Under the pieces are notes generated by a model. The model searched no databases. It was not told the origin of the DNA and saw only the letters and a program-made list of their open reading frames with translations. From Patescibacteria group bacterium (lineage in GTDB: Bacteria > Patescibacteriota > Doudnabacteria > UBA920), in assembly GCA_023484515.1 (NCBI GenBank), contig JAMDAY010000007.1, positions 50,179 to 114,178 of the forward strand: a stretch of 64,000 nt of DNA, written 5' to 3'. Below are positions 13,350 to 45,063 of this stretch, one piece after another. Every line of letters begins with the position of its first letter. Position 1 is the first letter of the stretch. A program made the translations under genes and the position numbers.

Positions 13350-14069
13350 TTGGATTTAATGAATAAACCCCTTATGGACAGCGCAATCCAACAAACCGGG
13401 TCTTCCGTGGCAGGTTCTCTCCAGGATTTATACAACAAAGTTGCCGCTTTCCTGCCCCAATTGGTGGCGGCTATTATTATTCTGATAATCGGCTGGATTA
13501 TTGCCGTTTTGCTGGGCAACGGCGTAACCCGCGTTTTACATTTTATTAAAGTGGACAGTTTGGCCGACCGTTTCGGGCTGCACCAACTAGGGGAAAGAAT
13601 CGGGAGGAAAGTCACTGTGTCCGGGTTATTCGGCTGGCTGGTAAAATGGTTTTTTTTAATTGCCACGTTCGTGGCCGCGGCAGAAGCGCTGGGGCTTAAC
13701 CAGGTCAGCCAATTCCTGTATAACGAAGTTTTCCCGTATTTCGGGAACGTGGTCGTAGCTGCCATTATTTTGGTGATCGGCTATTTAGTCGCCCATTTTT
13801 TATACGAAGTTATCCGCGATTCGCTCAAAGCCAGCGGTTTTGCCGCGGCCACTACCGTAGCCGCGGCAGGCCGGTGGGCAATTTTGATCTTTTCGTTCAT
13901 TGCAGCGCTGGCACAGTTAAAAATTGCTCCGGACTTTATGAAACTGCTGTTTACCGCCATTGTCTTTATGCTTGCCCTGGCCGGAGGACTGGCGTTCGGC
14001 CTGGGCGGGCGGGACCAGGCCCGCGACATGCTGGAACAAATCCGCAACAAGTCGCGCCCGGCAAAATAA
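13350..14069 (+). CDS. membrane protein with conserved TM-helix repeats (mechanosensitive-channel-associated type)
   Basis: Two similar hydrophobic repeat units (…VAAIIILIIGWIIAVLLG… / …VVAAIILVIGYLVAHFL…). Confidence 0.45.
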   Translation: MDLMNKPLMDSAIQQTGSSVAGSLQDLYNKVAAFLPQLVAAIIILIIGWIIAVLLGNGVTRVLHFIKVDSLADRFGLHQLGERIGRKVTVSGLFGWLVKWFFLIATFVAAAEALGLNQVSQFLYNEVFPYFGNVVVAAIILVIGYLVAHFLYEVIRDSLKASGFAAATTVAAAGRWAILIFSFIAALAQLKIAPDFMKLLFTAIVFMLALAGGLAFGLGGRDQARDMLEQIRNKSRPAK

Positions 14070-14077
14070 TTAATACT

Positions 14078-14120
14078 AACACAAAGGGCATCTTTACGTT
14101 ATGTAAAGACGCCCTTTGTT
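14078..14120. terminator. bidirectional terminator between convergent genes
   Basis: Imperfect 15-bp palindrome AAAGGGCATCTTTACGT/ATGTAAAGACGCCCTTT. Confidence 0.5.
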
Positions 14121-14138
14121 AATTGTTAATCGTTATAG

Positions 14139-14774
14139 TTACTGTCGTTCTTTCCGGCCCTCCCTTAATTTCTTCATTCCTTCCGCCGCAAAAACCAGGC
14201 TGGCAATAAACCCGCCTATTTTTTTGTTATATGATTCGTCTATTAACAGTCCTTCCGCGTTAAAAGCTTTCTGCACCGGCCCGAACATTACGGTTTCGCG
14301 GATGGCAAACATGGAAAAATTCGCCATTAAGGGCCGTAATTGTTCCATGGCTCTGGCTCCCCCGGTTATCCCGGATGAGACACCGGCAAATCCTACCGCT
14401 TTATACTCGAATTCCTTATATAACCAATCCAGCGCGTTCTTGAGCACTGCCGGATACCCGTGGTTATATTCCGGCGTAACGATTACGAACGCATCCGCAG
14501 CCTCGGCAATTGTGCTCCACTTTTGGACATTGGCGTCAGGATACTTTTTATTTAAGGACGCCGGCGGAGGGTCGCAAAACATAAACGGCAAAGTCAGTTC
14601 CTTAAAATCCACCAATACGGATTCATGCCCGCTATCCAATAGTATTTTATTAATTAGCCGCGCCGGAAAAATACTTTTCCGGCTGTCGCGCACGCTCCCT
14701 AAAATGACAGGAATGTTCAATTTCATAAATATAAATTTATAATAGTAGACGATCAATTTTGCAAAATCAAACAC
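14139..14774 (-). CDS. NAD(P)H-dependent FMN reductase family oxidoreductase
   Basis: MKLNIPVILGSVRDSRKS...VIVTPEYNHGYPAVLKNALDW pattern of the FMN_red family. Confidence 0.7.
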   Translation of the reverse strand: MFDFAKLIVYYYKFIFMKLNIPVILGSVRDSRKSIFPARLINKILLDSGHESVLVDFKELTLPFMFCDPPPASLNKKYPDANVQKWSTIAEAADAFVIVTPEYNHGYPAVLKNALDWLYKEFEYKAVGFAGVSSGITGGARAMEQLRPLMANFSMFAIRETVMFGPVQKAFNAEGLLIDESYNKKIGGFIASLVFAAEGMKKLREGRKERQ

Positions 14775-15420
14775 CTGTTTGAACCGGAAAAATTTGTCTG
14801 AAAGACTTTAAGCGGGATTTTCCCATGCGCGGCAAACTCATTAATTCAATATCCGAAGCCTGCGCCAGGTTATCTATTGTCTTAAAAACTGTTAAGAGAT
14901 CGCTGGCTGTTTGCCTGCCAATTCCCGAAATTTGCGTGAGGATATTTATTTGCCGCTGCCAAGGAGTAATTATTTTCCGCTGCTGGCGGCATTGTTGCAG
15001 GTTTGCTGCCGCATTGGCGGAATATTTTTTCGCCAGCAAGCGCAATATGCTGGAAGAATCTTCTTCGTTGCAAGTCCTGACTAAAGAAACTTTTTTAGTA
15101 ACCGTGATCCAAAGGATTACCCCGCGGATAACATCGGACGACACGCGCCCTTGATGGTATAAGCCCCCGCCTTCCAGTAACAGCAAAGGATGCTTGCAGC
15201 TTCTTGCCAGCCAGGCCACTTGCCGAAACAAGCGGCCGTCGGCAATGGAAGTAATAAAGTCGCTAATGGTTTTGCGTTCAACAAAACAATCGGAACCAAT
15301 AACGTAGTCCGTAGCCAGGCTGCCAAACTGGACGGAAAACCCCAAATGGGACAAAAATTTCGGCACCAAGCACCTCTGCTCGCGGAAATCCGCCAAAATT
15401 GAATTTTTGTTTATATGCAT
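14767..15420 (-). CDS. ERCC4-type (XPF/Mus81/Hef-like) nuclease domain protein with C-terminal HhH
   Basis: ERKTISDFITSIADGRLFRQ matches the ERK...D...GR ERCC4 signature. Start set at MHINKNS (15420), which has a GGAGGG RBS. Confidence 0.6.
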   Translation of the reverse strand: MHINKNSILADFREQRCLVPKFLSHLGFSVQFGSLATDYVIGSDCFVERKTISDFITSIADGRLFRQVAWLARSCKHPLLLLEGGGLYHQGRVSSDVIRGVILWITVTKKVSLVRTCNEEDSSSILRLLAKKYSANAAANLQQCRQQRKIITPWQRQINILTQISGIGRQTASDLLTVFKTIDNLAQASDIELMSLPRMGKSRLKSFRQIFPVQTGV

Positions 15421-15438
15421 AAACCCTCCGGATTTAAC

Positions 15439-15600
15439 GGGTCTGTTGCCGAATGCCATTTTGGCTGCAATTTTAGAATTTCGGCATCTTGGCCAAAAAA
15501 TTTTTTCCCCTTAGCCTACGGCTAAACATCAAAAATTATTTTAGCCAATCTGCTCGGAATTCTGAAATTTCGCCTTAAAAGCGCATTCGGCAGCAGACCC
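15439..15600. mobile_element. 162-bp MITE-like element, copy 1 (terminal inverted repeats GGGTCTGTTGCCGAATGC / GCATTCGGCAGCAGACCC)
   Basis: Near-identical second copy at 61969-62130; internal TTAGCC-TAC-GGCTAA hairpin; TTAAC/TTAAT-like flanks. Confidence 0.7.
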
Positions 15601-15602
15601 TT

Positions 15603-15642
15603 AACGGCCGCCATTCCAATTAAAGGAATGGCGGCCGTTTTG
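15603..15642. terminator. perfect 15-bp hairpin AACGGCCGCCATTCC...GGAATGGCGGCCGTT followed by TTTTG
   Basis: Read directly, adjacent to MITE copy 1. Confidence 0.5.
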
Positions 15643-15653
15643 TTAAAGCCCGC

Positions 15654-15875
15654 TTATTTGGTATTGGCGCCCGCTTCCGCAAGCGCTTCGCCGAAAGCCT
15701 GCAACTGGTCCGAAAACACGGTAATGCTGCCGCGGTGGCGCTGGCCGTCTTTGTTCATCCAGCTTTCGGAAATTTGCATGTACTTGCTTTGTTTGCCGCC
15801 CTGGGCCTGCTTGACGTCAAAAAAATACGTATTGCCGCCGGCTTTGAGGGACTTGGAAAAAATTGCTTCGTTCAT
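15654..15875 (-). CDS. PUR-like (DUF3276-type) putative nucleic-acid-binding protein
   Basis: KAGGNTYFFDVKQAQGGKQSKYMQISE resembles the bacterial Pur-alpha-like repeat. Start at MNEAIFS, because the ORF-track start codon is TTG. Confidence 0.35.
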   Translation of the reverse strand: MNEAIFSKSLKAGGNTYFFDVKQAQGGKQSKYMQISESWMNKDGQRHRGSITVFSDQLQAFGEALAEAGANTK

Positions 15876-16118
15876 AAATTTATATAGCAATTAGCTGGCA
15901 GTATTTGGCATTTAGCAGTCTGGATAAATACTATTTGCCAAATACGTAACACTAAAAGCTATTTTTGCGTTAAGGCTGCCTCGACCTTTGTTAAAGCGAA
16001 CAAGAGTGATGGAGGGGAAAGAATAAACAGCCTATCCTTTCCCATTATGAACGATCGTTCACCTATTGTCAATAACCTTAAAATCAGGGGTTTTCTGATA
16101 TCTCAATTGATTTATCCA

Positions 16119-16146
16119 CAAAAAAAAACGGCCTGCATGGCCGGTT
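16119..16146 (-). terminator. minus-strand terminator CGGCCATGCAGGCCG + T9, ending the LAGLIDADG/tRNA-Leu transcript
   Basis: Read directly on the minus strand. Confidence 0.6.
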
Positions 16147-16277
16147 CCATTACCATCCTATACCGCTTGCCCTGTTTATAGTCGTACCACACACCTGAGC
16201 GAGCCAGATAGCCTTGCACCAGTCACGATGCTCCGGTTCATGGCGGCGCCATATACCCGAGCGAAGCGGGTGGTATA

Positions 16278-16362
16278 TGGTGCCCTCGGTGGGATTCGAA
16301 CCCACAAGCCTTGCGGCACATGCACCTCAAGCATGCACGTATTCCAGTTCCGTCACGAGGGC
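16278..16362 (-). tRNA. tRNA-Leu (anticodon GAG), class II with long variable arm, CCA encoded
   Basis: Manual fold: acceptor GCCCTCG/CGAGGGC, 3-bp D-stem with GG, anticodon stem CATGC/GCATG with loop TTGAGGT, variable arm GCC-GCAA-GGC, T-arm GTGGG-TTCGAAT-CCCAC. Confidence 0.85.
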
Positions 16363-16368
16363 CAAAGA

Positions 16369-17022
16369 TTAGGGATTTTCTCTATTTATTGCTAATGCAG
16401 TATACACTTTTCTGTATTTTCTTTCAAGCATCGGGTTTTTTTCATTTGCATACATCTTGGCAATAATCTTCTGCGCTTCAGATTTAGCATATTTAAGCTG
16501 ATATACCTTCGCTCCAAAACTTGTATTGAAATGCCCTTTTACTTTAAGAATAAAAAATAACCTTTTTTGTACCCACTGGAGATGCTTTAAACTAGCTGAA
16601 ATAAATTCTAAATAAAACATAAAACTGGAAGCCCAACGTTTGTCCCAATAAGAATAAAAAGTTCCATCACCGTCAAAACTGCCTCTAAGAAAATCAAAAA
16701 AATATTTATTCGGAATTTTTAGTCCCGCTATTGTTTTAGATTTTGCTGGAGTTAGCCCTATTGATAATAAAAAACTATAAAATTTAATATCGCCAAACTG
16801 TACCCAGTAAGCAGCCTTGTTTTGATCGTAACCACTATGCTTTATGGATATCTTATTTTTTATACCCAAACAATTTTTAAAAATTTTTACCAATTCCAGA
16901 TCTTTTGACACAAAGGCCATGTGCCTACCATCATTGTAAAGACACCCGTCAGTGGCGATCAAGCCTACCACATAAGCCAAATTTGAGGACCATTGAGTTT
17001 TTATTTTATTTGCAGGTCTCAT
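16369..17022 (-). CDS. LAGLIDADG homing endonuclease, double-motif single-chain type
   Basis: Two LAGLIDADG motifs (LAYVVGLIATDG and FDFLRGSFDGDG). ATG at 17022; the ORF-track start 17085 is TTG. Stop lies 6 nt before the tRNA-Leu 5' end. Confidence 0.85.
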   Translation of the reverse strand: MRPANKIKTQWSSNLAYVVGLIATDGCLYNDGRHMAFVSKDLELVKIFKNCLGIKNKISIKHSGYDQNKAAYWVQFGDIKFYSFLLSIGLTPAKSKTIAGLKIPNKYFFDFLRGSFDGDGTFYSYWDKRWASSFMFYLEFISASLKHLQWVQKRLFFILKVKGHFNTSFGAKVYQLKYAKSEAQKIIAKMYANEKNPMLERKYRKVYTALAINRENP

Positions 17023-17050
17023 TTGTCTCAATGTATAAGCGTATACCAAT

Positions 17051-17085
17051 ATTATAGCAAAACTGCGGAAAAAATCCAGAGACAA
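17051..17085 (-). promoter_or_regulatory. extended -10 (TGcTATAAT) promoter candidate for the LAGLIDADG-tRNA unit
   Basis: Read directly on the minus strand; the -35 is weak. Confidence 0.3.
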
Positions 17086-17090
17086 AATGC

Positions 17091-17117
17091 AGGGACAGGT
17101 CTAGACCTGTCCCTACG
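17091..17117 (-). terminator. REP-like perfect palindrome AGGGACAGGTC-TAGA-CCTGTCCCT acting as the pyrB terminator
   Basis: Sibling palindrome at 47612-47641. Confidence 0.55.
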
Positions 17118-17131
17118 GTAATGGCACAATA

Positions 17132-18058
17132 TTACTTTCCCAGCAAGTAATGCAGCAGGGCCATGCGCATAAACAAGCCATTGCGTGCCTGGCGGAAATA
17201 AGCGGCGCGCACGTCCGCGTCCACTTCCGGCGCTATTTCGTTCACGCGGGGCAGGGGATGAAGAATAATGGAATCTTTCTTGAGTTTTTCCAAAACCGCG
17301 GAATTTATTACATAACAATCCTTTAACCGCTCATATTCTTCATGCGAAGCAAACCTTTCCTTTTGCACCCGCGTCATATAAACCACGTCTATCTTGTCCA
17401 AAATGCCTTCAAAATTTTCCAACTCTTCAAATTCCACGTTTTTTTCTTTTAAGATATCCTTAAACTTTTCCGGCATTCTTAACTTGTCCGGGGAAACGAA
17501 GTAAAATTTGTTTTTTTGGTATAGGGACAGCAGGGGCAACAGGGAATGCACGGTGCGGCCGTACAGCAAGTCGCCTATCATGGCAATGTTTAAATTGTCC
17601 AGGCGGCCCAGCTCTTTTTTAACGGTGAACATATCCAGCAGCGCCTGGGTCGGATGTTCGCCCTTGCCGTCGCCGGCGTTTACTATCGGCACCGGCGAAA
17701 CCGCGGCCGCCCGCTTGGCCGCGCCTTCTTCCGGATGCCGCATTACTATGCCGTCGGCATAGCCGCTAATTATGCGGATAGTATCTTCCAAAGTTTCGCC
17801 CTTTACCGCGGACGAAGAAATAGCGGCATTCTCCGTGCCAATAACGCTGCCGCCAAGCTTTAAAACAGAAGTTTCAAAAGACAGGCGGGTGCGGGTGGAC
17901 GGCTCAAAAAACATGCAGGCTATAACCTTTCCCGCCAGGGAAGTCGGCACTTTGCCGCCGTGATTACTTTTTTCCATCTCTGCGGCCAAAGCAAACAGCT
18001 CCTGCTGGAGCCCCAAGTCTAAAAATTGGTCTGCGCTTAAAATGTGTTTGAGTTTCAT
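17132..18058 (-). CDS. pyrB: aspartate carbamoyltransferase catalytic subunit
   Basis: STRTR motif and HPxQ; typical ATCase length (308 aa). Confidence 0.9.
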   Translation of the reverse strand: MKLKHILSADQFLDLGLQQELFALAAEMEKSNHGGKVPTSLAGKVIACMFFEPSTRTRLSFETSVLKLGGSVIGTENAAISSSAVKGETLEDTIRIISGYADGIVMRHPEEGAAKRAAAVSPVPIVNAGDGKGEHPTQALLDMFTVKKELGRLDNLNIAMIGDLLYGRTVHSLLPLLSLYQKNKFYFVSPDKLRMPEKFKDILKEKNVEFEELENFEGILDKIDVVYMTRVQKERFASHEEYERLKDCYVINSAVLEKLKKDSIILHPLPRVNEIAPEVDADVRAAYFRQARNGLFMRMALLHYLLGK

Positions 18059-18168
18059 AATATTTTAATCCGGATATGCGAATAACGTAATCCGAATTTA
18101 CGGATGGCTACGGATATAAATCCGCGGCCGTCTGCCGATCCGGATGCTATTTGCATATCCGGATCGGG

Positions 18169-21100
18169 TTACTTGTTATTTATAAATTCCCTCCTGTATT
18201 CCTGCCAGGAGACTATTCCTAAATTATCCGGCTGGTTTCTTCCCAGGGCTTTAACGAACGCGCGGGCCAAATGTAGGTCAATAAACAGCGGAATCTGGTT
18301 ATCTACGGCGGCGCGCCTTATGCGGAAACCGTCATTTAAATGCCGCTTGAGCTTGTCCTGTTCCTGCCTGCCTTCATTCTGGCTCAAATTTACCACAAAA
18401 GCAATATCCTTTCCCTCAATCGCGTTTAAGACGTTAGGCTGCTGCTCGGAAACCTTCCGCACAACAGTGCAGGCCACATTCTGTTCCCGCAGATACGAAG
18501 CAGTGGTATCGGTCGCGAGAATCTCATACCCCAAGAACACTAAAGTTTGTGCGGCTTCCAAAAATTTTATCTTGTTCAGTTCACCGCCCAAAGAAAGCAG
18601 CACGCGTTTTTTGGTAAAGTCAAAACTATTGGCGGACATTATGGACTTAAGCAAAGCCTCGTCGTAAGTGCGGCCAAAACAGGCTACCTCGCCGGTAGAG
18701 GACATTTCCACCTGCAAAACCGGATCCGCTCCTGAGAGGCGGGCAAAGGAAAACTGGGGCGATTTGACTACGACCGCGGGCGGATATTCATAATTGAATT
18801 TTTTTGCCTTGCCAAAAAAACTGTCCACGGCAATGGCCGGAAAATTGGTAAACAAGGCCTTGGACAGCAAGGGAAAGGTGCGGCTGGCGCGCACATTCAC
18901 TTCTATAACAAACGGCTGGTTGTCCTTGAATAAAAATTGGATGTTGAACGGCCCGGTAATTTTCAGCTCCTTGCTGATTTTTTTCGCAATCTGGCGAAGC
19001 TGGTATTCGGTGGAAGCGTATACGCGCTGCGTCGGATAAACAATGGTCGCGTCTCCGGAATGCACGCCCGCGTTTTCCACATGCTCGGCAATGGCATAAA
19101 CCATTAACTCTCCGTTTTGGGCGACTGCGTCAAATTCCAGCTCTTTGGCGTTTTCAATAAATTTGGATACTGTTACCGGATGCCGCTGGTTTAAGTCCGC
19201 GGCTTTGCCAATGAAATCCTTTAACTGCTGGGGATTGCGGCAAACGCTCATGGCGCTGCCCGATAAAACATAAGAAGGCCGCACCAGGACCGGGTAACCA
19301 ACTTCTTCGGCAAACTGTTCCGCCTTTTCCAGGCTGGCAAAGCTCTGCCAGCGGGGCTGCAAAATGCCCAGTTTGTCCAGGAGCGCGGAAAACTTATTGC
19401 GGTCTTCGGCACGGTCAATGTTTTCCGCGCTGGTCCCTAAAATGGGAGCTTTATAAGCCGCCAGCGCATTGGCCAGGTTGTTGGGCCGCTGCCCTCCTAC
19501 CGACACCGCCACTCCGCCCGATTGCTCAAAATCTAAAATGTCTGCCACGGTTTCAAAATTCAAATCTTCAAAATACAGCCGGTCGGACATGTCGTAGTCA
19601 GTGGACACGGTTTCGGGGTTGCAGTTGATAATTATGGTTTTTTTGTCATATTTTTTTAAAGCCAAAGCCGTATTCACACATGACCAGTCAAACTCCACCG
19701 AAGATCCGATATGATAAGGCCCGCTGCCCAAGACCATGACGGATTTTTTGCCCAAAGGCTGGACATCGTGATGGTTGCCATGATAAGTCAGATACAAATA
19801 ATTGGTCTGGGCCGGCACTTCTCCCGCCAAGGTGTCAATTTGGAACACGCTCGGCAATACGCCGGCTTTTTGGCGCAGGGCGCGAATTTCCAATTCGGTT
19901 TTTCCCGTCAAAAATGCAATTCTTTTGTCCGAAAGTCCGGCTTGCTTATAGCGGCACAGGCTTTGAGGATCCAGCATTTGTGACGCCTTCAGATTTTCTT
20001 CCGTGTCCACAATATTTTTTATCCGGTACAAAAACCACAAATCAATTCCCGTTGCCTGATAGATATCCTTTACTTTTGCGCCATTTTTTAAACTTTCAGC
20101 CAGGGCAAACAAACGTTTGGGCGTCGGTATTTTTAAAAATTTTTCGGAAAATTCTTTTTTTGATAAATTTTTAATGTTAAACCCGTTTTCCGTAACGCCT
20201 TGGACGCGGCCGCTTAACATGCGGCTGGCTTTTTGTAAAGCTTCTTCAAAACTTCTGCCTATGGCCATAACTTCGCCCACGGACTTCATGGCGCTGCCGA
20301 TTTTTTCTTCCGCTCCGGAAAACTTTTCCAAATCCCAGCGCGGCATTTTAACCACCACGTAATCAAGCGCCGGCTCAAAAAAACTTTGCGTAACTTTGGT
20401 CACTTGGTTTTGCACTTTGTTTAAAGTCTTACCCAAAGCCAGCTTTGCCGCAACATAAGCCAAAGGATAGCCGGTGGCCTTGGAAGCCAAAGCCGAGGAG
20501 CGCGACAAACGCGCGTTGACCTCGATTACATAATAATCTAAACCTTGCTTGCCTGTATGTCCATGCATCCGTGTTGATCCGTCATCTTTGATCTGTGTAG
20601 ATCCGTTTGGGTTTAACGCAAATTGGACATTGCATTCGCCAACAATTCCCAAGGATTTGACGATATTTACAGACACCTCGCGCAAACCATGGTATTCGTC
20701 GCTGGTCAAGGTCTGGCTGGGCGCCACCACAATGGAATCGCCGGTGTGGATGCCCAAAGGATCCATGTTTTCCATGTTGCAGACCGTGACGCAGTTGCCT
20801 TCTTTGTCGCGCACAACTTCGTATTCAATTTCCTTAAAATGATGCAAATATTTTTCCACCAGCACCTGCGGCGACACGGCCAAGGCGCCGCTGACTATCT
20901 CATTTAATTGCTTAAGATTATAAGCCACCCCGCTCTTTTGCCCGCCCAAAGCGTAAGCCGCGCGCACCATAACCGGAAAGCCAATTTGCTTGGCTATGGC
21001 TTGCGCCTGTACCAGAGTAGCAGCCGCTCCGCTCGGCGGAACTGCCACATTAATCTTCCGGAGATGGTCCGCAAAATTTTTCCGATCCTCCGTCAAAACA

Positions 21101-21459
21101 ACAGCTTCTATGGGCGTGCCCAAAACTTTAACCTTATGCTTCTTTAAAATGCCTTTACGGTGCAATTCCAACCCGCAATTTAGCGCGGTTTGCCCGCCAA
21201 AAGACAACAATATCCCGTCCGGCTTTTCCTTGGCAATAACCTTTTCCACAAAATAGGGCGTCACCGGCAAAAAATAAATTTCGTCAGCCAAAAGGGGAGA
21301 AGTTTGGATAGTGGCAATGTTGGGATTGACCAAAACCGTCTTTATCCCTTCTTCCTTTAACGCCTTCATGGCCTGGCTGCCCGAATAATCAAACTCCCCG
21401 GCCTCGCCAATTTTTAATGCCCCGCTTCCTAAGACTAATACTTTCTTAAGTGTTTTCAT
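18169..21459 (-). CDS. carB: carbamoyl-phosphate synthase large subunit
   Basis: 1096 aa with duplicated ATP-grasp halves and MGS-like C-terminus; N-terminus VLVLGSGALKIGEAGEFDYSGSQA. Confidence 0.95.
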   Translation of the reverse strand: MKTLKKVLVLGSGALKIGEAGEFDYSGSQAMKALKEEGIKTVLVNPNIATIQTSPLLADEIYFLPVTPYFVEKVIAKEKPDGILLSFGGQTALNCGLELHRKGILKKHKVKVLGTPIEAVVLTEDRKNFADHLRKINVAVPPSGAAATLVQAQAIAKQIGFPVMVRAAYALGGQKSGVAYNLKQLNEIVSGALAVSPQVLVEKYLHHFKEIEYEVVRDKEGNCVTVCNMENMDPLGIHTGDSIVVAPSQTLTSDEYHGLREVSVNIVKSLGIVGECNVQFALNPNGSTQIKDDGSTRMHGHTGKQGLDYYVIEVNARLSRSSALASKATGYPLAYVAAKLALGKTLNKVQNQVTKVTQSFFEPALDYVVVKMPRWDLEKFSGAEEKIGSAMKSVGEVMAIGRSFEEALQKASRMLSGRVQGVTENGFNIKNLSKKEFSEKFLKIPTPKRLFALAESLKNGAKVKDIYQATGIDLWFLYRIKNIVDTEENLKASQMLDPQSLCRYKQAGLSDKRIAFLTGKTELEIRALRQKAGVLPSVFQIDTLAGEVPAQTNYLYLTYHGNHHDVQPLGKKSVMVLGSGPYHIGSSVEFDWSCVNTALALKKYDKKTIIINCNPETVSTDYDMSDRLYFEDLNFETVADILDFEQSGGVAVSVGGQRPNNLANALAAYKAPILGTSAENIDRAEDRNKFSALLDKLGILQPRWQSFASLEKAEQFAEEVGYPVLVRPSYVLSGSAMSVCRNPQQLKDFIGKAADLNQRHPVTVSKFIENAKELEFDAVAQNGELMVYAIAEHVENAGVHSGDATIVYPTQRVYASTEYQLRQIAKKISKELKITGPFNIQFLFKDNQPFVIEVNVRASRTFPLLSKALFTNFPAIAVDSFFGKAKKFNYEYPPAVVVKSPQFSFARLSGADPVLQVEMSSTGEVACFGRTYDEALLKSIMSANSFDFTKKRVLLSLGGELNKIKFLEAAQTLVFLGYEILATDTTASYLREQNVACTVVRKVSEQQPNVLNAIEGKDIAFVVNLSQNEGRQEQDKLKRHLNDGFRIRRAAVDNQIPLFIDLHLARAFVKALGRNQPDNLGIVSWQEYRREFINNK

Positions 21460-28673: not shown

Positions 28674-28750
28674 GGGCGGTTAGCTCAGCTGGTTAGAGCG
28701 CCTCGTTTACACCGAGGAGGTCAAAGGTTCGAATCCTTTATCGCCCACCA
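28674..28750 (+). tRNA. tRNA-Val (anticodon TAC)
   Basis: Manual fold: acceptor GGGCGGT/ATCGCCC, anticodon loop TTTACAC, T-loop TTCGAAT, CCA encoded. Confidence 0.85.
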
Positions 28751-28795
28751 GAAAAAGTTATTTTTGCTTAAGGTATTAAAAAATGATAAAATAAA

Positions 28796-28872
28796 GCCGG
28801 ACTAGCTCATCGGTTTAGAGCGCTGCCCTGAAGAGGCAGGCGTACCCAGTTCGACTCTGGGGTCCGGCACCA
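28796..28872 (+). tRNA. tRNA-Phe (anticodon GAA)
   Basis: Acceptor GCCGGAC/GTCCGGC, anticodon loop CTGAAGA, CCA encoded. Confidence 0.85.
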
Positions 28873-28873
28873 A

Positions 28874-28947
28874 GCGGCTATGGTTCAATGGTAGAACTTC
28901 TCCTTGCCATGGAGAGGATAGGGGTTCGATTCCCCTTAGCCGCTCCA
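28874..28947 (+). tRNA. tRNA-Gly (anticodon GCC), discriminator U73
   Basis: Acceptor GCGGCTA/TAGCCGC, anticodon loop TTGCCAT, CCA encoded; 1-nt spacer after tRNA-Phe. Confidence 0.85.
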
Positions 28948-32779: not shown

Positions 32780-32867
32780 TGGTGCCCAGGGAGGGAATCG
32801 AACCCTCAATCCCTTGCGGGCGACAGATTTTAAGTCTGTTGCGTATACCAGTTCCGCCACCTGGGCT
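32780..32867 (-). tRNA. tRNA-Leu (anticodon TAA), class II, CCA encoded
   Basis: Acceptor GCCCAGG/CCTGGGC, anticodon loop CTTAAAA, long variable arm, T-arm GAGGG-TTCGATT-CCCTC. Confidence 0.85.
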
Positions 32868-33140
32868 CATTGACTTTTAGTCTAGATTGTTCCCGTTTTT
32901 ATGGAAGTTTAGCAAAAATACACCTTGCCGCCTTAGCAAATAAATTATAGTCTTACTTCACATAAAGCTTCCTGCTTCGCCAAGACTTCGCCGAACAAGC
33001 CTTAAGGCACTTCTTCGCGATAATAAGCAGCATCAGCAATTTAAACAATACCCGACTTCTAAGCCGCGCTTGCACTTCCTGCTTCACGTAAAGCTTCGCA
33101 GGACGAGTCATAGCTCCGACGTTAAGTCGGAGCGAAGAAG

Positions 33141-33216
33141 TGGAGGCGCAGATGGGATTTGCACCCATGAGTCGCGGTTTTGCAGACCGCTGTGTTAGCT
33201 ACTTCACCACTGCGCC
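33141..33216 (-). tRNA. tRNA-Cys (anticodon GCA), discriminator U73, CCA encoded
   Basis: Acceptor GGCGCAG/CTGCGCC, anticodon stem GCGGT/ACCGC with loop CTGCAAA, T-loop TGCAAAT (non-canonical), atypical D-loop. Confidence 0.7.
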
Positions 33217-44987: not shown

Positions 44988-45063
44988 TGGTGGGCGCGGA
45001 AGGACTCGAACCTTCGACCAATCGTGTATAAGACGATCGCTCTACCAACTGAGCTACGCGCCC
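44988..45063 (-). tRNA. tRNA-Ile (anticodon TAT, i.e. UAU), CCA encoded
   Basis: Acceptor GGGCGCG/CGCGCCC, D-loop AGTTGGTA, anticodon stem ATCGT/ACGAT with loop CTTATAC, T-arm GAAGG-TTCGAGT-CCTTC. Confidence 0.8.

Follow-up and report, generated by a model that had tools for sequence, protein, structure and literature searches.

A gene for a 217-aa LAGLIDADG protein, whose stop codon lies 6 nt upstream of the 5' end of a tRNA-Leu(GAG) gene in a member of the Patescibacteria, is in our moderately confident judgement a site-specific, selfish (or recently selfish) free-standing homing endonuclease gene residing in the leader of the tRNA-Leu precursor. It was found in a 64,000-nt stretch of contig JAMDAY010000007.1 (positions 50,179 to 114,178 of the forward strand, assembly GCA_023484515.1), referred to below as the window. 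The open reading frame (ORF) has its own start and stop codons in the window and is not embedded in an intron or intein; it fills the space that separates the tRNA-Leu promoter (or, in other genomes, rplS) from the 5' end of the mature tRNA. Its relatives recur at the 5' edge of tRNA-Leu genes across the Patescibacteria, also known as the candidate phyla radiation (CPR), and beyond them. A full-text search of the literature found no report of bacterial LAGLIDADG genes linked to tRNA-Leu, and the family is apparently undescribed.

LAGLIDADG homing endonucleases make site-specific double-strand cuts in long targets of about 20 bp. In cellular genomes homing endonucleases persist mainly inside self-splicing introns or inteins, and free-standing ones are found chiefly in phages and organelles.

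An intact double-motif LAGLIDADG protein

A first-pass annotation of this DNA, made from its letters alone, had described a double-motif LAGLIDADG ORF of 217 aa in an AT-rich segment, placed after the terminator of pyrB and ending 6 nt before a canonical class II tRNA-Leu(GAG), with a 9-bp hairpin, a trailer and a terminator 3' of the tRNA. All of these parts held up: translation and a Pfam search agreed on the protein, the GC content of the ORF is 29-33% against about 48-54% in its flanks, the pyrB hairpin was located, ARAGORN and Rfam both returned the tRNA, and the hairpin, a trailer of about 125 nt and the terminator are present.

The two motifs are LAYVVGLIATDG and FLRGSFDGDG, and their ends, GLIATDG and GSFDGDG, supply the putative catalytic residues D25 and D119. 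The sole Pfam match of the protein is PF14528 LAGLIDADG_3 (27.6 bits against a cut-off of 22.5, E=3.5e-6); no NCBIfam model matched it, and the Pfam search found neither a Hint/intein domain nor a helix-turn-helix domain in it. NCBI annotates it as a hypothetical protein. An AlphaFold2 model (predicted local distance difference test score, pLDDT, 91; predicted template-modelling score, pTM, 0.89) consists of two repeats of a helix plus four strands, and this predicted fold fits two pseudo-symmetric alpha-beta-beta-alpha-beta-beta-alpha domains packed via their motif helices. When the model was compared with the PDB by Foldseek, the top match was I-Tsp061I (2dch, E=9e-11), followed by an intein endonuclease domain, I-AniI, WhiA (3hyi) and I-DmoI; the top matches were all LAGLIDADG enzymes, and a profile search also recovered 2dch (E=4.7e-7). 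The 217 residues make up the endonuclease fold alone. Like I-Tsp061I and I-DmoI, the protein is a single chain of about 200 aa with two motifs and retained acidic motif ends, and the predicted structure gave template-modelling (TM) scores of 0.68-0.72 against 2dch and about 0.55-0.65 against I-DmoI (Foldseek), although its sequence is only about 18% identical to theirs. Unlike those two enzymes, which are encoded inside archaeal rRNA introns, it comes from an ORF that lies in no intron and would have tRNA-Leu DNA as its target.

We next compared the protein with its relatives. D25 and D119 are both present in 120/120 close homologues, in 104/107 and 106/107 of a set of representatives and in 69/69 relatives of the protein P0320, and both are invariant in a wider alignment that includes distant relatives. 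Thirty aligned homologues have a mean column identity of 59% and 46 invariant positions, the two aspartates among them. The ratio of nonsynonymous to synonymous substitution rates (dN/dS) is 0.10 for the single pair with unsaturated dS, and internal stops were not found in any of 80 loci. Comparison of sequences therefore shows a protein under purifying selection with its putative active-site residues intact.

Such constraint would also be expected of a domesticated LAGLIDADG protein, the product of an old endonuclease gene that now serves its host at the tRNA-Leu locus by binding DNA, by regulating the tRNA operon or in recombination or repair specific to the locus. We regard domestication as a serious but unlikely alternative, with the low dN/dS on its side. 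It has a precedent in WhiA, one of the structural matches, which likewise puts a LAGLIDADG scaffold in a bacterial chromosome, and some distant relatives of the window protein carry N-terminal helix-turn-helix domains (one is annotated as a DeoR regulator). WhiA has lost its catalytic residues and bears a C-terminal helix-turn-helix domain, and the catalytic aspartates are not kept in maturases either. In the present family, by contrast, both aspartates are essentially invariant across the superfamily, and it differs from WhiA further in its patchy distribution and, for the window protein, in the missing helix-turn-helix domain. The conserved putative active site speaks against domestication.

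The family lies at the 5' edge of tRNA-Leu genes

Searching a protein collection with the window protein returned 3377 relatives. The best 120 are almost all 210-240 aa long, and those few with a named source are from Patescibacteria. We then scanned one genome per species, in which 437 loci encode a relative, and fetched the best 80 (52-66% identical). ARAGORN placed a tRNA-Leu gene directly 3' of the ORF and on the same strand in 75/75 loci with enough downstream sequence (74 GAG, 1 AAG); in the other five the contig ends 4-87 nt past the stop codon. The distance from stop codon to tRNA in the 75 Patescibacteria loci ranges from -36 to +19 nt. In 28 of them (about 37%; for example L003, L017 and L022) the ORF has no stop codon of its own and terminates inside the tRNA gene, either at a TAA at tRNA positions 13-15 or at an anticodon-loop TGA at positions 34-36, and the overlap never exceeds 36 nt. 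A regulator acting in trans would have no need of a 0-19 nt spacing to the tRNA in every genome, which argues against domestication. The gene upstream differs between loci: it is rplS, encoding ribosomal protein L19, in 50/78, and otherwise pyrD, pyrF, an rluA-like gene or pyrB, so the ORF follows the tRNA and not the genomic neighbourhood. In the window, where pyrB and carB are the upstream neighbours (pyrB at 17132-18058), the Val-Phe-Gly tRNAs that usually lie downstream are 12 kb away and the ORF is still beside tRNA-Leu.

The same position is held by much more distant relatives. In an exhaustive phmmer search, the number of cluster representatives was 98 at E<=1e-30, 918 at E<=1e-10 and 4565 at E<=1e-3. 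N-terminal extensions are frequent among the more distant proteins, and some that carry helix-turn-helix domains there still keep both aspartates. For seven distant relatives, which share 33-43% identity with the window protein and in part come from outside the Patescibacteria, we examined the surrounding genes, and 7/7 lie directly upstream of a tRNA-Leu gene: tRNA-Leu(CAA) in L175 (a Chloroflexi metagenome-assembled genome, MAG), L177/L178 and L180, tRNA-Leu(CAG) in L179 (on a 2.36-Mb contig) and L182, and tRNA-Leu(TAA) in L183. Five of these loci have a stop codon of their own, 5-36 nt from the tRNA. Since it recurs in 75/75 homologous loci and in 7/7 distant relatives, the adjacency of ORF and tRNA is far beyond chance. 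What had first looked like an isolated curiosity is instead a family spread across the Patescibacteria, within a superfamily that reaches beyond them and that always precedes tRNA-Leu where examined.

Several features of the public records became apparent in this survey. Family members are labelled as hypothetical proteins, as a "DeoR family transcriptional regulator" (L175) or as "WhiA", and annotation artefacts occur at L175 2501-3343, at L180 2501-3502 and in P0080. The gene call P0393 (333 aa; L180) spans the whole of tRNA-Leu(CAA), and its C-terminal sequence ..VRIPPPAP.. is translated tRNA. Two MAGs labelled Gammaproteobacteria (L007, L030) have a typical ORF-tRNA-Leu(GAG) locus, and many MAGs of one binning project are labelled Saccharibacteria; all of these taxon labels may be unreliable. 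Contigs end within 250 nt 3' of the ORF, at or just past tRNA-Leu, in 17/80 loci against 2.3 expected (Poisson p=6e-10), compared with 3/80 that end within 250 nt upstream of it. Possible causes of this excess are tRNA sequences common to co-occurring species or strain variation downstream.

Empty sites and a resident tRNA

If the ORF is an inserted element, relatives should exist that have the tRNA without it, and the first-pass annotation had proposed looking for tRNA-Leu(GAG) at this locus in genomes lacking the ORF. To sample loci independently of the endonuclease, we anchored a metagenome scan on L19, which gave 15 loci of the CPR-type order rplS-tRNA-Leu-Val-Phe-Gly. Thirteen are ORF-less, with tRNA-Leu 6-104 nt past rplS, and two are occupied. 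Two further ORF-less loci (L168, L171) came from a comparison of the window synteny via PyrB relatives, bringing the gene-anchored total to 15 empty and 2 occupied sites.

In that comparison, L163 (PyrB 66% identical) has the order carB-pyrB-ORF-tRNA-Leu-DUF3276-flavin mononucleotide (FMN) reductase. L168 (PyrB 83% identical) has carB-pyrB-terminator-TGTTATAAT-123 nt-tRNA-Leu(GAG)-terminator-FMN reductase, and tblastn at E<=10 found no ORF in it; a remnant of the ORF in the 123-nt leader was ruled out, since local alignment there was no better than with shuffled sequences. L171 is rplS-52 nt-tRNA-Leu(GAG)-pyrB. As the empty sites keep the tRNA at the same place and in the same array, the tRNA is the resident host gene.

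We considered treating L168 simply as the nearest relative of the window, and rejected this because the relationships of carB, pyrB and FMN reductase conflict. Across the syntenic region (window 13350-21459) carB pairs L168 with L163 (84%), pyrB pairs the window with L168 (83%), and FMN reductase gives no clear grouping; L168 is thus a comparably distant, mosaic relative. This pattern suggests recombination at the locus between related Patescibacteria lineages. An attempt to fix the exact insertion boundaries by comparing the occupied L003 with the empty L085 failed, the pair being too divergent (L19 59% identical).

The first-pass annotation had also raised the idea of a tRNA-plus-endonuclease cassette, either domesticated or mobile. 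A mobile cassette, in which ORF and tRNA-Leu(GAG) move together and replace or supplement the resident tRNA, would account for the window and L163 sharing tRNAs that are 98% identical, against 66-73% for the neighbouring proteins, while the tRNA of the ORF-less L168 is 73-76% identical to either (73% to that of the window). It would also fit the ORF remaining beside a tRNA that, as in the window, no longer lies with the Val-Phe-Gly tRNAs, and an anticodon loop of TTGAGGT in 70/77 occupied and 4/13 empty tRNAs. Finally, ORF identity correlates with tRNA identity (rho 0.12) and L19 identity does not (rho -0.006), although these correlations are weak and uncorrected for phylogeny. We nevertheless think a mobile cassette improbable. 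The tRNA is resident at the empty sites, the tRNAs adjacent to ORFs are diverse and show compensatory changes, and in either half of the molecule the occupied tRNAs exceed the empty ones in mutual similarity only by a small margin. The idea moreover overlaps with a homing endonuclease gene in the tRNA leader, as co-conversion of the flanking tRNA is expected in homing.

Transcription signals around and inside the ORF

An extended -10 box of the common form TGnTATAAT precedes the ORF in the window (TGCTATAAT) and in L163 (TGGTATAAT), and the corresponding box is present in the ORF-less L168, where it was given above. A three-way alignment shows the pyrB terminator to be conserved in all three as well, and the similarity between the window and L168 stops directly past the -10 box. 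The tRNA of L168 is flanked by two terminators, with the -10 box as the only promoter candidate between them. Its conservation in an ORF-less locus indicates that the box, which had initially been assigned to the ORF as its own promoter, is probably the promoter of tRNA-Leu that the ORF uses; the box itself is there, and the exclusive assignment is what gave way. Because L168 has no other candidate for its tRNA, the shared box also places the ORF inside the tRNA-Leu transcription unit. In several of the empty rplS loci the tRNA begins just 6-10 nt past the end of the rplS match, a spacing that implies transcription together with rplS.

A terminator scan found no terminator between ORF and tRNA in the window, so co-transcription of the two by read-through, as first proposed, is plausible. 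The tRNA need not depend on it, since a probable second promoter for tRNA-Leu, TTGAAA-17-TATACT, lies within the 3' end of the ORF, with 36 nt between it and the tRNA (16427->16399). Promoters matching at least 10/12 positions, mostly TTGAAA-17-TATAAT, occur in the last 75 nt before the tRNA in 28/76 loci; among 537 control windows taken from the interior of these ORFs the figure is 0.4%. Relative to the codons of the conserved C-terminal helix, the embedded promoter occurs in two registers (LERKY.. and ..YLKIK..), which points to selection on the DNA sequence itself.

An imitation of the tRNA-Leu 5' half upstream of the ORF

To look for a duplicated target, we aligned each tRNA locally to the 150 nt upstream of its own ORF, and the scores were unexpectedly high. 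The cause is a conserved motif, (A)TTGG[TC]A[TG]ACGCT[AT]T.ACCTTGAGG, which reproduces tRNA-Leu(GAG) from the GG of its D-loop, through the 3' D-stem strand and the 5' anticodon-stem strand, to its anticodon loop; in L016, L028, L009, L033 and L035 the copy reaches back to tRNA position 1. By fuzzy search the motif is present within 160 nt upstream of the ORF in 70/83 occupied loci against 60/5530 control windows, and it was not found upstream of the tRNA in 14/15 empty loci. The copy in the window (17026-17047) has four substitutions. In 60/63 loci the motif is closer to the motifs of other loci (0.79) than to its own tRNA (0.65), and its invariant blocks, GG.A.ACGC and TTGAG, are 1 nt further apart than in a real tRNA. 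Being conserved between loci more than it matches the adjacent tRNA, the motif is best described as a conserved part of the element and not as a locally decaying relic.

The placement of the motif relative to other signals varies. In most rplS loci its TTGGTA acts as a -35 box and TATAAT follows directly after TTGAGG (TTGGTA-18-TATAAT in L015). In the clade of the window the -10 box lies just upstream of the motif, which fills the 5' untranslated region (UTR; 17049->17025), and the GAG(G/A) of the motif stands 4-9 nt before the ATG, at the position of a ribosome-binding site. One sequence conserved in two such roles suggests a common function, and the motif could be an enzyme binding site or a homology arm. 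Its location in the promoter or 5' UTR resembles that of an operator, which would also suit a domesticated regulator.

A half tRNA upstream of an endonuclease ORF might instead be an exon, with the ORF inside a missed intron, for instance a group I or archaeal-type intron at tRNA-Leu position 37/38, or in an intein. Such an intron is suggested by the upstream sequence resembling tRNA-Leu positions ~16-38 (1-38 in some loci) and ending in the anticodon loop, and by the origin of the closest solved structure in an archaeal rRNA intron. We consider an intron or intein host very improbable. The downstream tRNA is complete and canonical, leaving nothing that needs splicing; no group I intron was found in 15850-17200 at E<=10, nor beside the ORF in 18 related loci; and the upstream copy has one nucleotide too many between its blocks, misses positions 1-15 in most cases, and follows the copies at other loci and not its own tRNA. 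An intein is opposed by the lack of a Hint domain. The view of the first-pass annotation that no intron or intein host is evident thus stands, with the twist of a tRNA-like half that is an imitation and not an exon, and a free-standing gene remains our reading. Elsewhere in the set, a group I intron does occur in L003 (5603-5838; Rfam Intron_gpI, 70.5 bits), about 900 nt downstream of tRNA-Leu. It takes the place that tRNA-Phe has in other loci, flanked by tRNA-Val and tRNA-Gly, and may belong to an intron-bearing tRNA gene of this array; it is unrelated to the ORF.

Mobility and vertical inheritance

We then asked whether the element behaves as a mobile gene. The GC content of the ORF is below that of its flanks in 80/80 loci and in 6/6 loci of a sister family. 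GC content at third codon positions (GC3) compared with neighbouring genes is 0.29 against 0.52-0.65 in the window, and 0.69 against 0.93 and 0.60 against 0.83 in other hosts, and the ORF remains low across hosts of 35-70% GC even where synonymous sites are saturated. As these comparisons show, the synonymous-site composition of the ORF is foreign to every host examined. Some pairs of loci are plainly discordant (for example, L055 and L064 share 77% identity in the ORF and 44% in L19). The Mantel correlation between pairwise ORF and L19 identities is low but significant (r = 0.28, 0/2000 permutations). The bias of occupied tRNAs toward the TTGAGGT loop (Fisher p=8e-6, a value that ignores relatedness) could arise because the loop belongs to the target or because it undergoes co-conversion together with the ORF, or it could be a product of sampling. 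A phage origin was rejected, as no relative of the endonuclease was found in a viral contig collection.

A number of observations weigh against a selfish homing endonuclease. The estimate of occupancy is based on 17 loci. In 19/50 loci, where 3 are expected by chance, the most similar ORF belongs to one of the three loci with the most similar L19, pointing to largely vertical inheritance at shallow depth; the window and L163 ORFs are 66.7% identical and their neighbouring genes 66-73%, an equal divergence; and the protein is more conserved than L19 in 1130/1225 pairs, with ORF identity reaching a plateau at about 57% where L19 drops to 30-40%. No degenerate copy was found among the 80 loci, which were chosen as best matches, where a classic cycle of gain, decay and loss predicts some. 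Homing would require the ORF-bearing allele to escape cleavage, yet this allele keeps an intact tRNA, and the sequence just 5' of the tRNA is A-rich in occupied and empty sites alike. Transfer of only the 5' half of the tRNA together with the ORF was considered and rejected, the 5' and 3' halves being equally conserved. Finally, the six sister-family loci lack the imitation motif, and half-sites with the cognate anticodon were sought in them and not found.

Several of these points are what domestication would predict, namely vertical inheritance with many losses of a gene that stays beside the tRNA through shared transcription signals: the significant vertical signal, the conservation relative to L19, a divergence between the window and L163 matching that of host neighbours, and the missing pseudogenes all speak for it. 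On the other side are the patchy distribution (2 occupied against 15 empty sites, with an ORF-less relative of the same synteny), a GC3 far from that of the host in every genome even at saturated synonymous sites, and several discordant ORF/L19 pairs. In our reading, inheritance of the element is mostly vertical, with repeated loss, which the embedded promoter would slow, and probably with at least an occasional transfer.

Organization of the locus in the window

The features of the ORF-tRNA unit are listed in Table 1. A longer reading of the ORF, 238 aa from TTG 17085 in the same open frame, was ruled out because homologues start at the ATG (about 217 aa, MKP..) and because this TTG is upstream of the conserved -10 box. 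The pyrB terminator forms the upstream edge of the tRNA-Leu transcription unit, and a homologous hairpin lies 3' of pyrB in the ORF-less L168. At the other end, the 9-bp hairpin 3' of the tRNA pairs 16280-16272 with 16257-16249, and the T-run of the closing terminator and the GTGGAT that follows it are kept in L163.

Table 1. Features of the ORF-tRNA-Leu(GAG) unit and its borders, in window coordinates
Feature	Position	Strand	Details or basis
Predicted LAGLIDADG endonuclease ORF	16369-17022	minus	ATG 17022, stop TAA 16371-16369, 217 aa
tRNA-Leu(GAG), class II, CCA encoded	16278-16362	minus	ARAGORN; Rfam tRNA 50.4 bits
pyrB intrinsic terminator, 12-bp stem then ATTTTGTCTC	17089..17116 (17116->17089)	minus	terminator scan
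Extended -10 promoter TGCTATAAT	17051..17059 (17059->17051)	minus	read off sequence
Imitation of tRNA-Leu(GAG) 5' half, TTGGTATACGCTTATACATTGAGAC; family consensus GGTAKACGCTATTACCTTGAGG	17025..17049	minus	between -10 box and ATG
Candidate sigma-70-type promoter TTGAAA-17-TATACT in ORF 3' end, codons of conserved C-terminal helix LERKYRKVYTAL	16399..16427	minus	promoter scan
Trailer, ~125 nt, including 9-bp hairpin overlapping CCA end	16148..16272	minus	alignments with L163 and L168
Intrinsic terminator CGGCCATGCAGGCCG then T9, closing the ORF-tRNA unit	16120..16143 (hairpin 16143->16129)	minus	terminator scan

The trailer, at about 55% GC, is missing from both same-synteny relatives, L163 and L168; it is a lineage-specific insertion and probably not a conserved part of the ORF-tRNA unit. 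A group I intron fold in it had been suggested as a check, and none emerged from Rfam at E<=10; indeed, the trailer has no Rfam match at the gathering score or at E<=10, and the tRNA is the only Rfam family in 15850-17200 even at E<=10. The trailer folds no better than shuffled sequence (z-scores -0.7 and -1.2), and neither the window nor the fetched loci yielded a second copy. A structured or known RNA was ruled out by the Rfam result, the ordinary z-scores and the absence from relatives.

The tRNAs that usually flank tRNA-Leu(GAG) are dispersed in the window as Val(tac)-Phe-Gly, Leu(taa)-Cys and Ile(tat) (28674-28947, 32780-33216 and 44988-45063), so the ancestral tRNA array has been broken up in this lineage. 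Downstream of the unit, the promoter of the DUF3276 gene (TTGACA-17-CATAAT, 16044-16072, minus strand) overlaps a perfect palindrome, GAACGATCGTTC, at 16049-16060, kept as GAACGAACGTTC in L163. With its GAAC-N4-GTTC form the palindrome looks like a LexA (SOS) box of the Gram-positive type. In the window, the gene that follows downstream (14767-15459) is for a nuclease of the ERCC4 type that has helix-hairpin-helix motifs.

Discussion

We propose the following scheme for the life of the element. The ORF would be transcribed within the pre-tRNA-Leu transcript, from the promoter of the tRNA or of the operon, and cleavage by RNase P at the tRNA 5' end would separate the mRNA from a normal tRNA; the insertion would thereby be harmless without an intron or intein. 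The embedded promoter would keep tRNA-Leu, and often also the downstream Val-Phe-Gly tRNAs, expressed, making deletion of the ORF costly. The enzyme would recognize tRNA-Leu gene DNA, most likely the region from D-arm to anticodon loop that is copied by the upstream imitation, and a candidate target is tRNA-Leu(GAG) gene positions ~16-40. Alleles without the ORF would be cut, and repair from an ORF-bearing copy would propagate or protect the gene. The imitation half-site might serve as an autoregulatory binding site, as a homology arm, or as both.

More tentatively, and with somewhat less than even confidence, we extend this scheme to a clade that reaches beyond the Patescibacteria and is bound to the 5' edge of tRNA-Leu genes with GAG, AAG, CAA, CAG and TAA anticodons. 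Such a clade would represent a third route to harmlessness next to introns and inteins, combining release by RNase P, an embedded promoter and a decoy half-site for a D-arm/anticodon-arm DNA target.

In function, the element appears to work most like the seg and mob genes of phage T4, and the resemblance to free-standing phage endonuclease genes near tRNAs that was noted at the outset is apt. In both cases a stand-alone endonuclease gene lies between conserved genes, with a host promoter upstream and variable presence among relatives. In T4, promoters for downstream host genes are embedded in the coding regions of seg and mob genes, favouring their retention, and SegB lies between tRNA genes and targets the tRNA region (PMC2988022). 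The differences are also clear: the T4 enzymes are of the GIY-YIG or HNH type and the window family is LAGLIDADG; the T4 genes reside in phage genomes and spread in co-infections, whereas the window family resides in bacterial chromosomes, mainly of CPR; and only the latter combines a fixed position at or overlapping the tRNA 5' end, in hundreds of species and with five anticodons, with a tRNA imitation.

Two further comparisons are instructive. Edgell et al. 2004 is said to describe autorepression of I-TevI through an operator resembling its homing site. A look-alike of the presumed target in the promoter or 5' UTR of the endonuclease gene itself would be a feature shared with I-TevI, although the enzyme family is another one and the look-alike here copies half a tRNA gene. 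The LAGLIDADG genes of rRNA insertions in CPR (I-ShaI, for example) share host group, superfamily, patchy distribution and the choice of conserved RNA genes as targets. According to the survey that described them, they lie inside insertions of 16S and 23S rRNA genes, many of them group I introns, and encode mostly LAGLIDADG_1 single-domain dimers; LAGLIDADG_3 was rare and confined to 16S insertions, and the survey, which covers rRNA insertions, does not mention tRNA (PMC11270868).

The family also matters for annotation, since its genes now go under the labels hypothetical, "DeoR regulator" or "WhiA" and some of the calls extend through the tRNA. The compact (~217 aa), single-chain and highly diverse proteins could serve as meganuclease scaffolds, and the half-tRNA imitation gives a concrete, testable prediction of the recognition sequence. 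If our scheme is right, a stop codon inside the tRNA, as in more than a third of the Patescibacteria loci, together with RNase P cleavage would produce an mRNA that lacks a stop codon, and expression might thereby be held down by the arrangement itself. The scheme would also define a new niche for homing endonucleases, the leader of an essential tRNA gene, and a new way of being harmless, through tRNA 5' processing. The family would then lend itself to studying, in nature, how a "selfish" nuclease can remain intact for so long, and the embedded tRNA promoter may be what locks it in.

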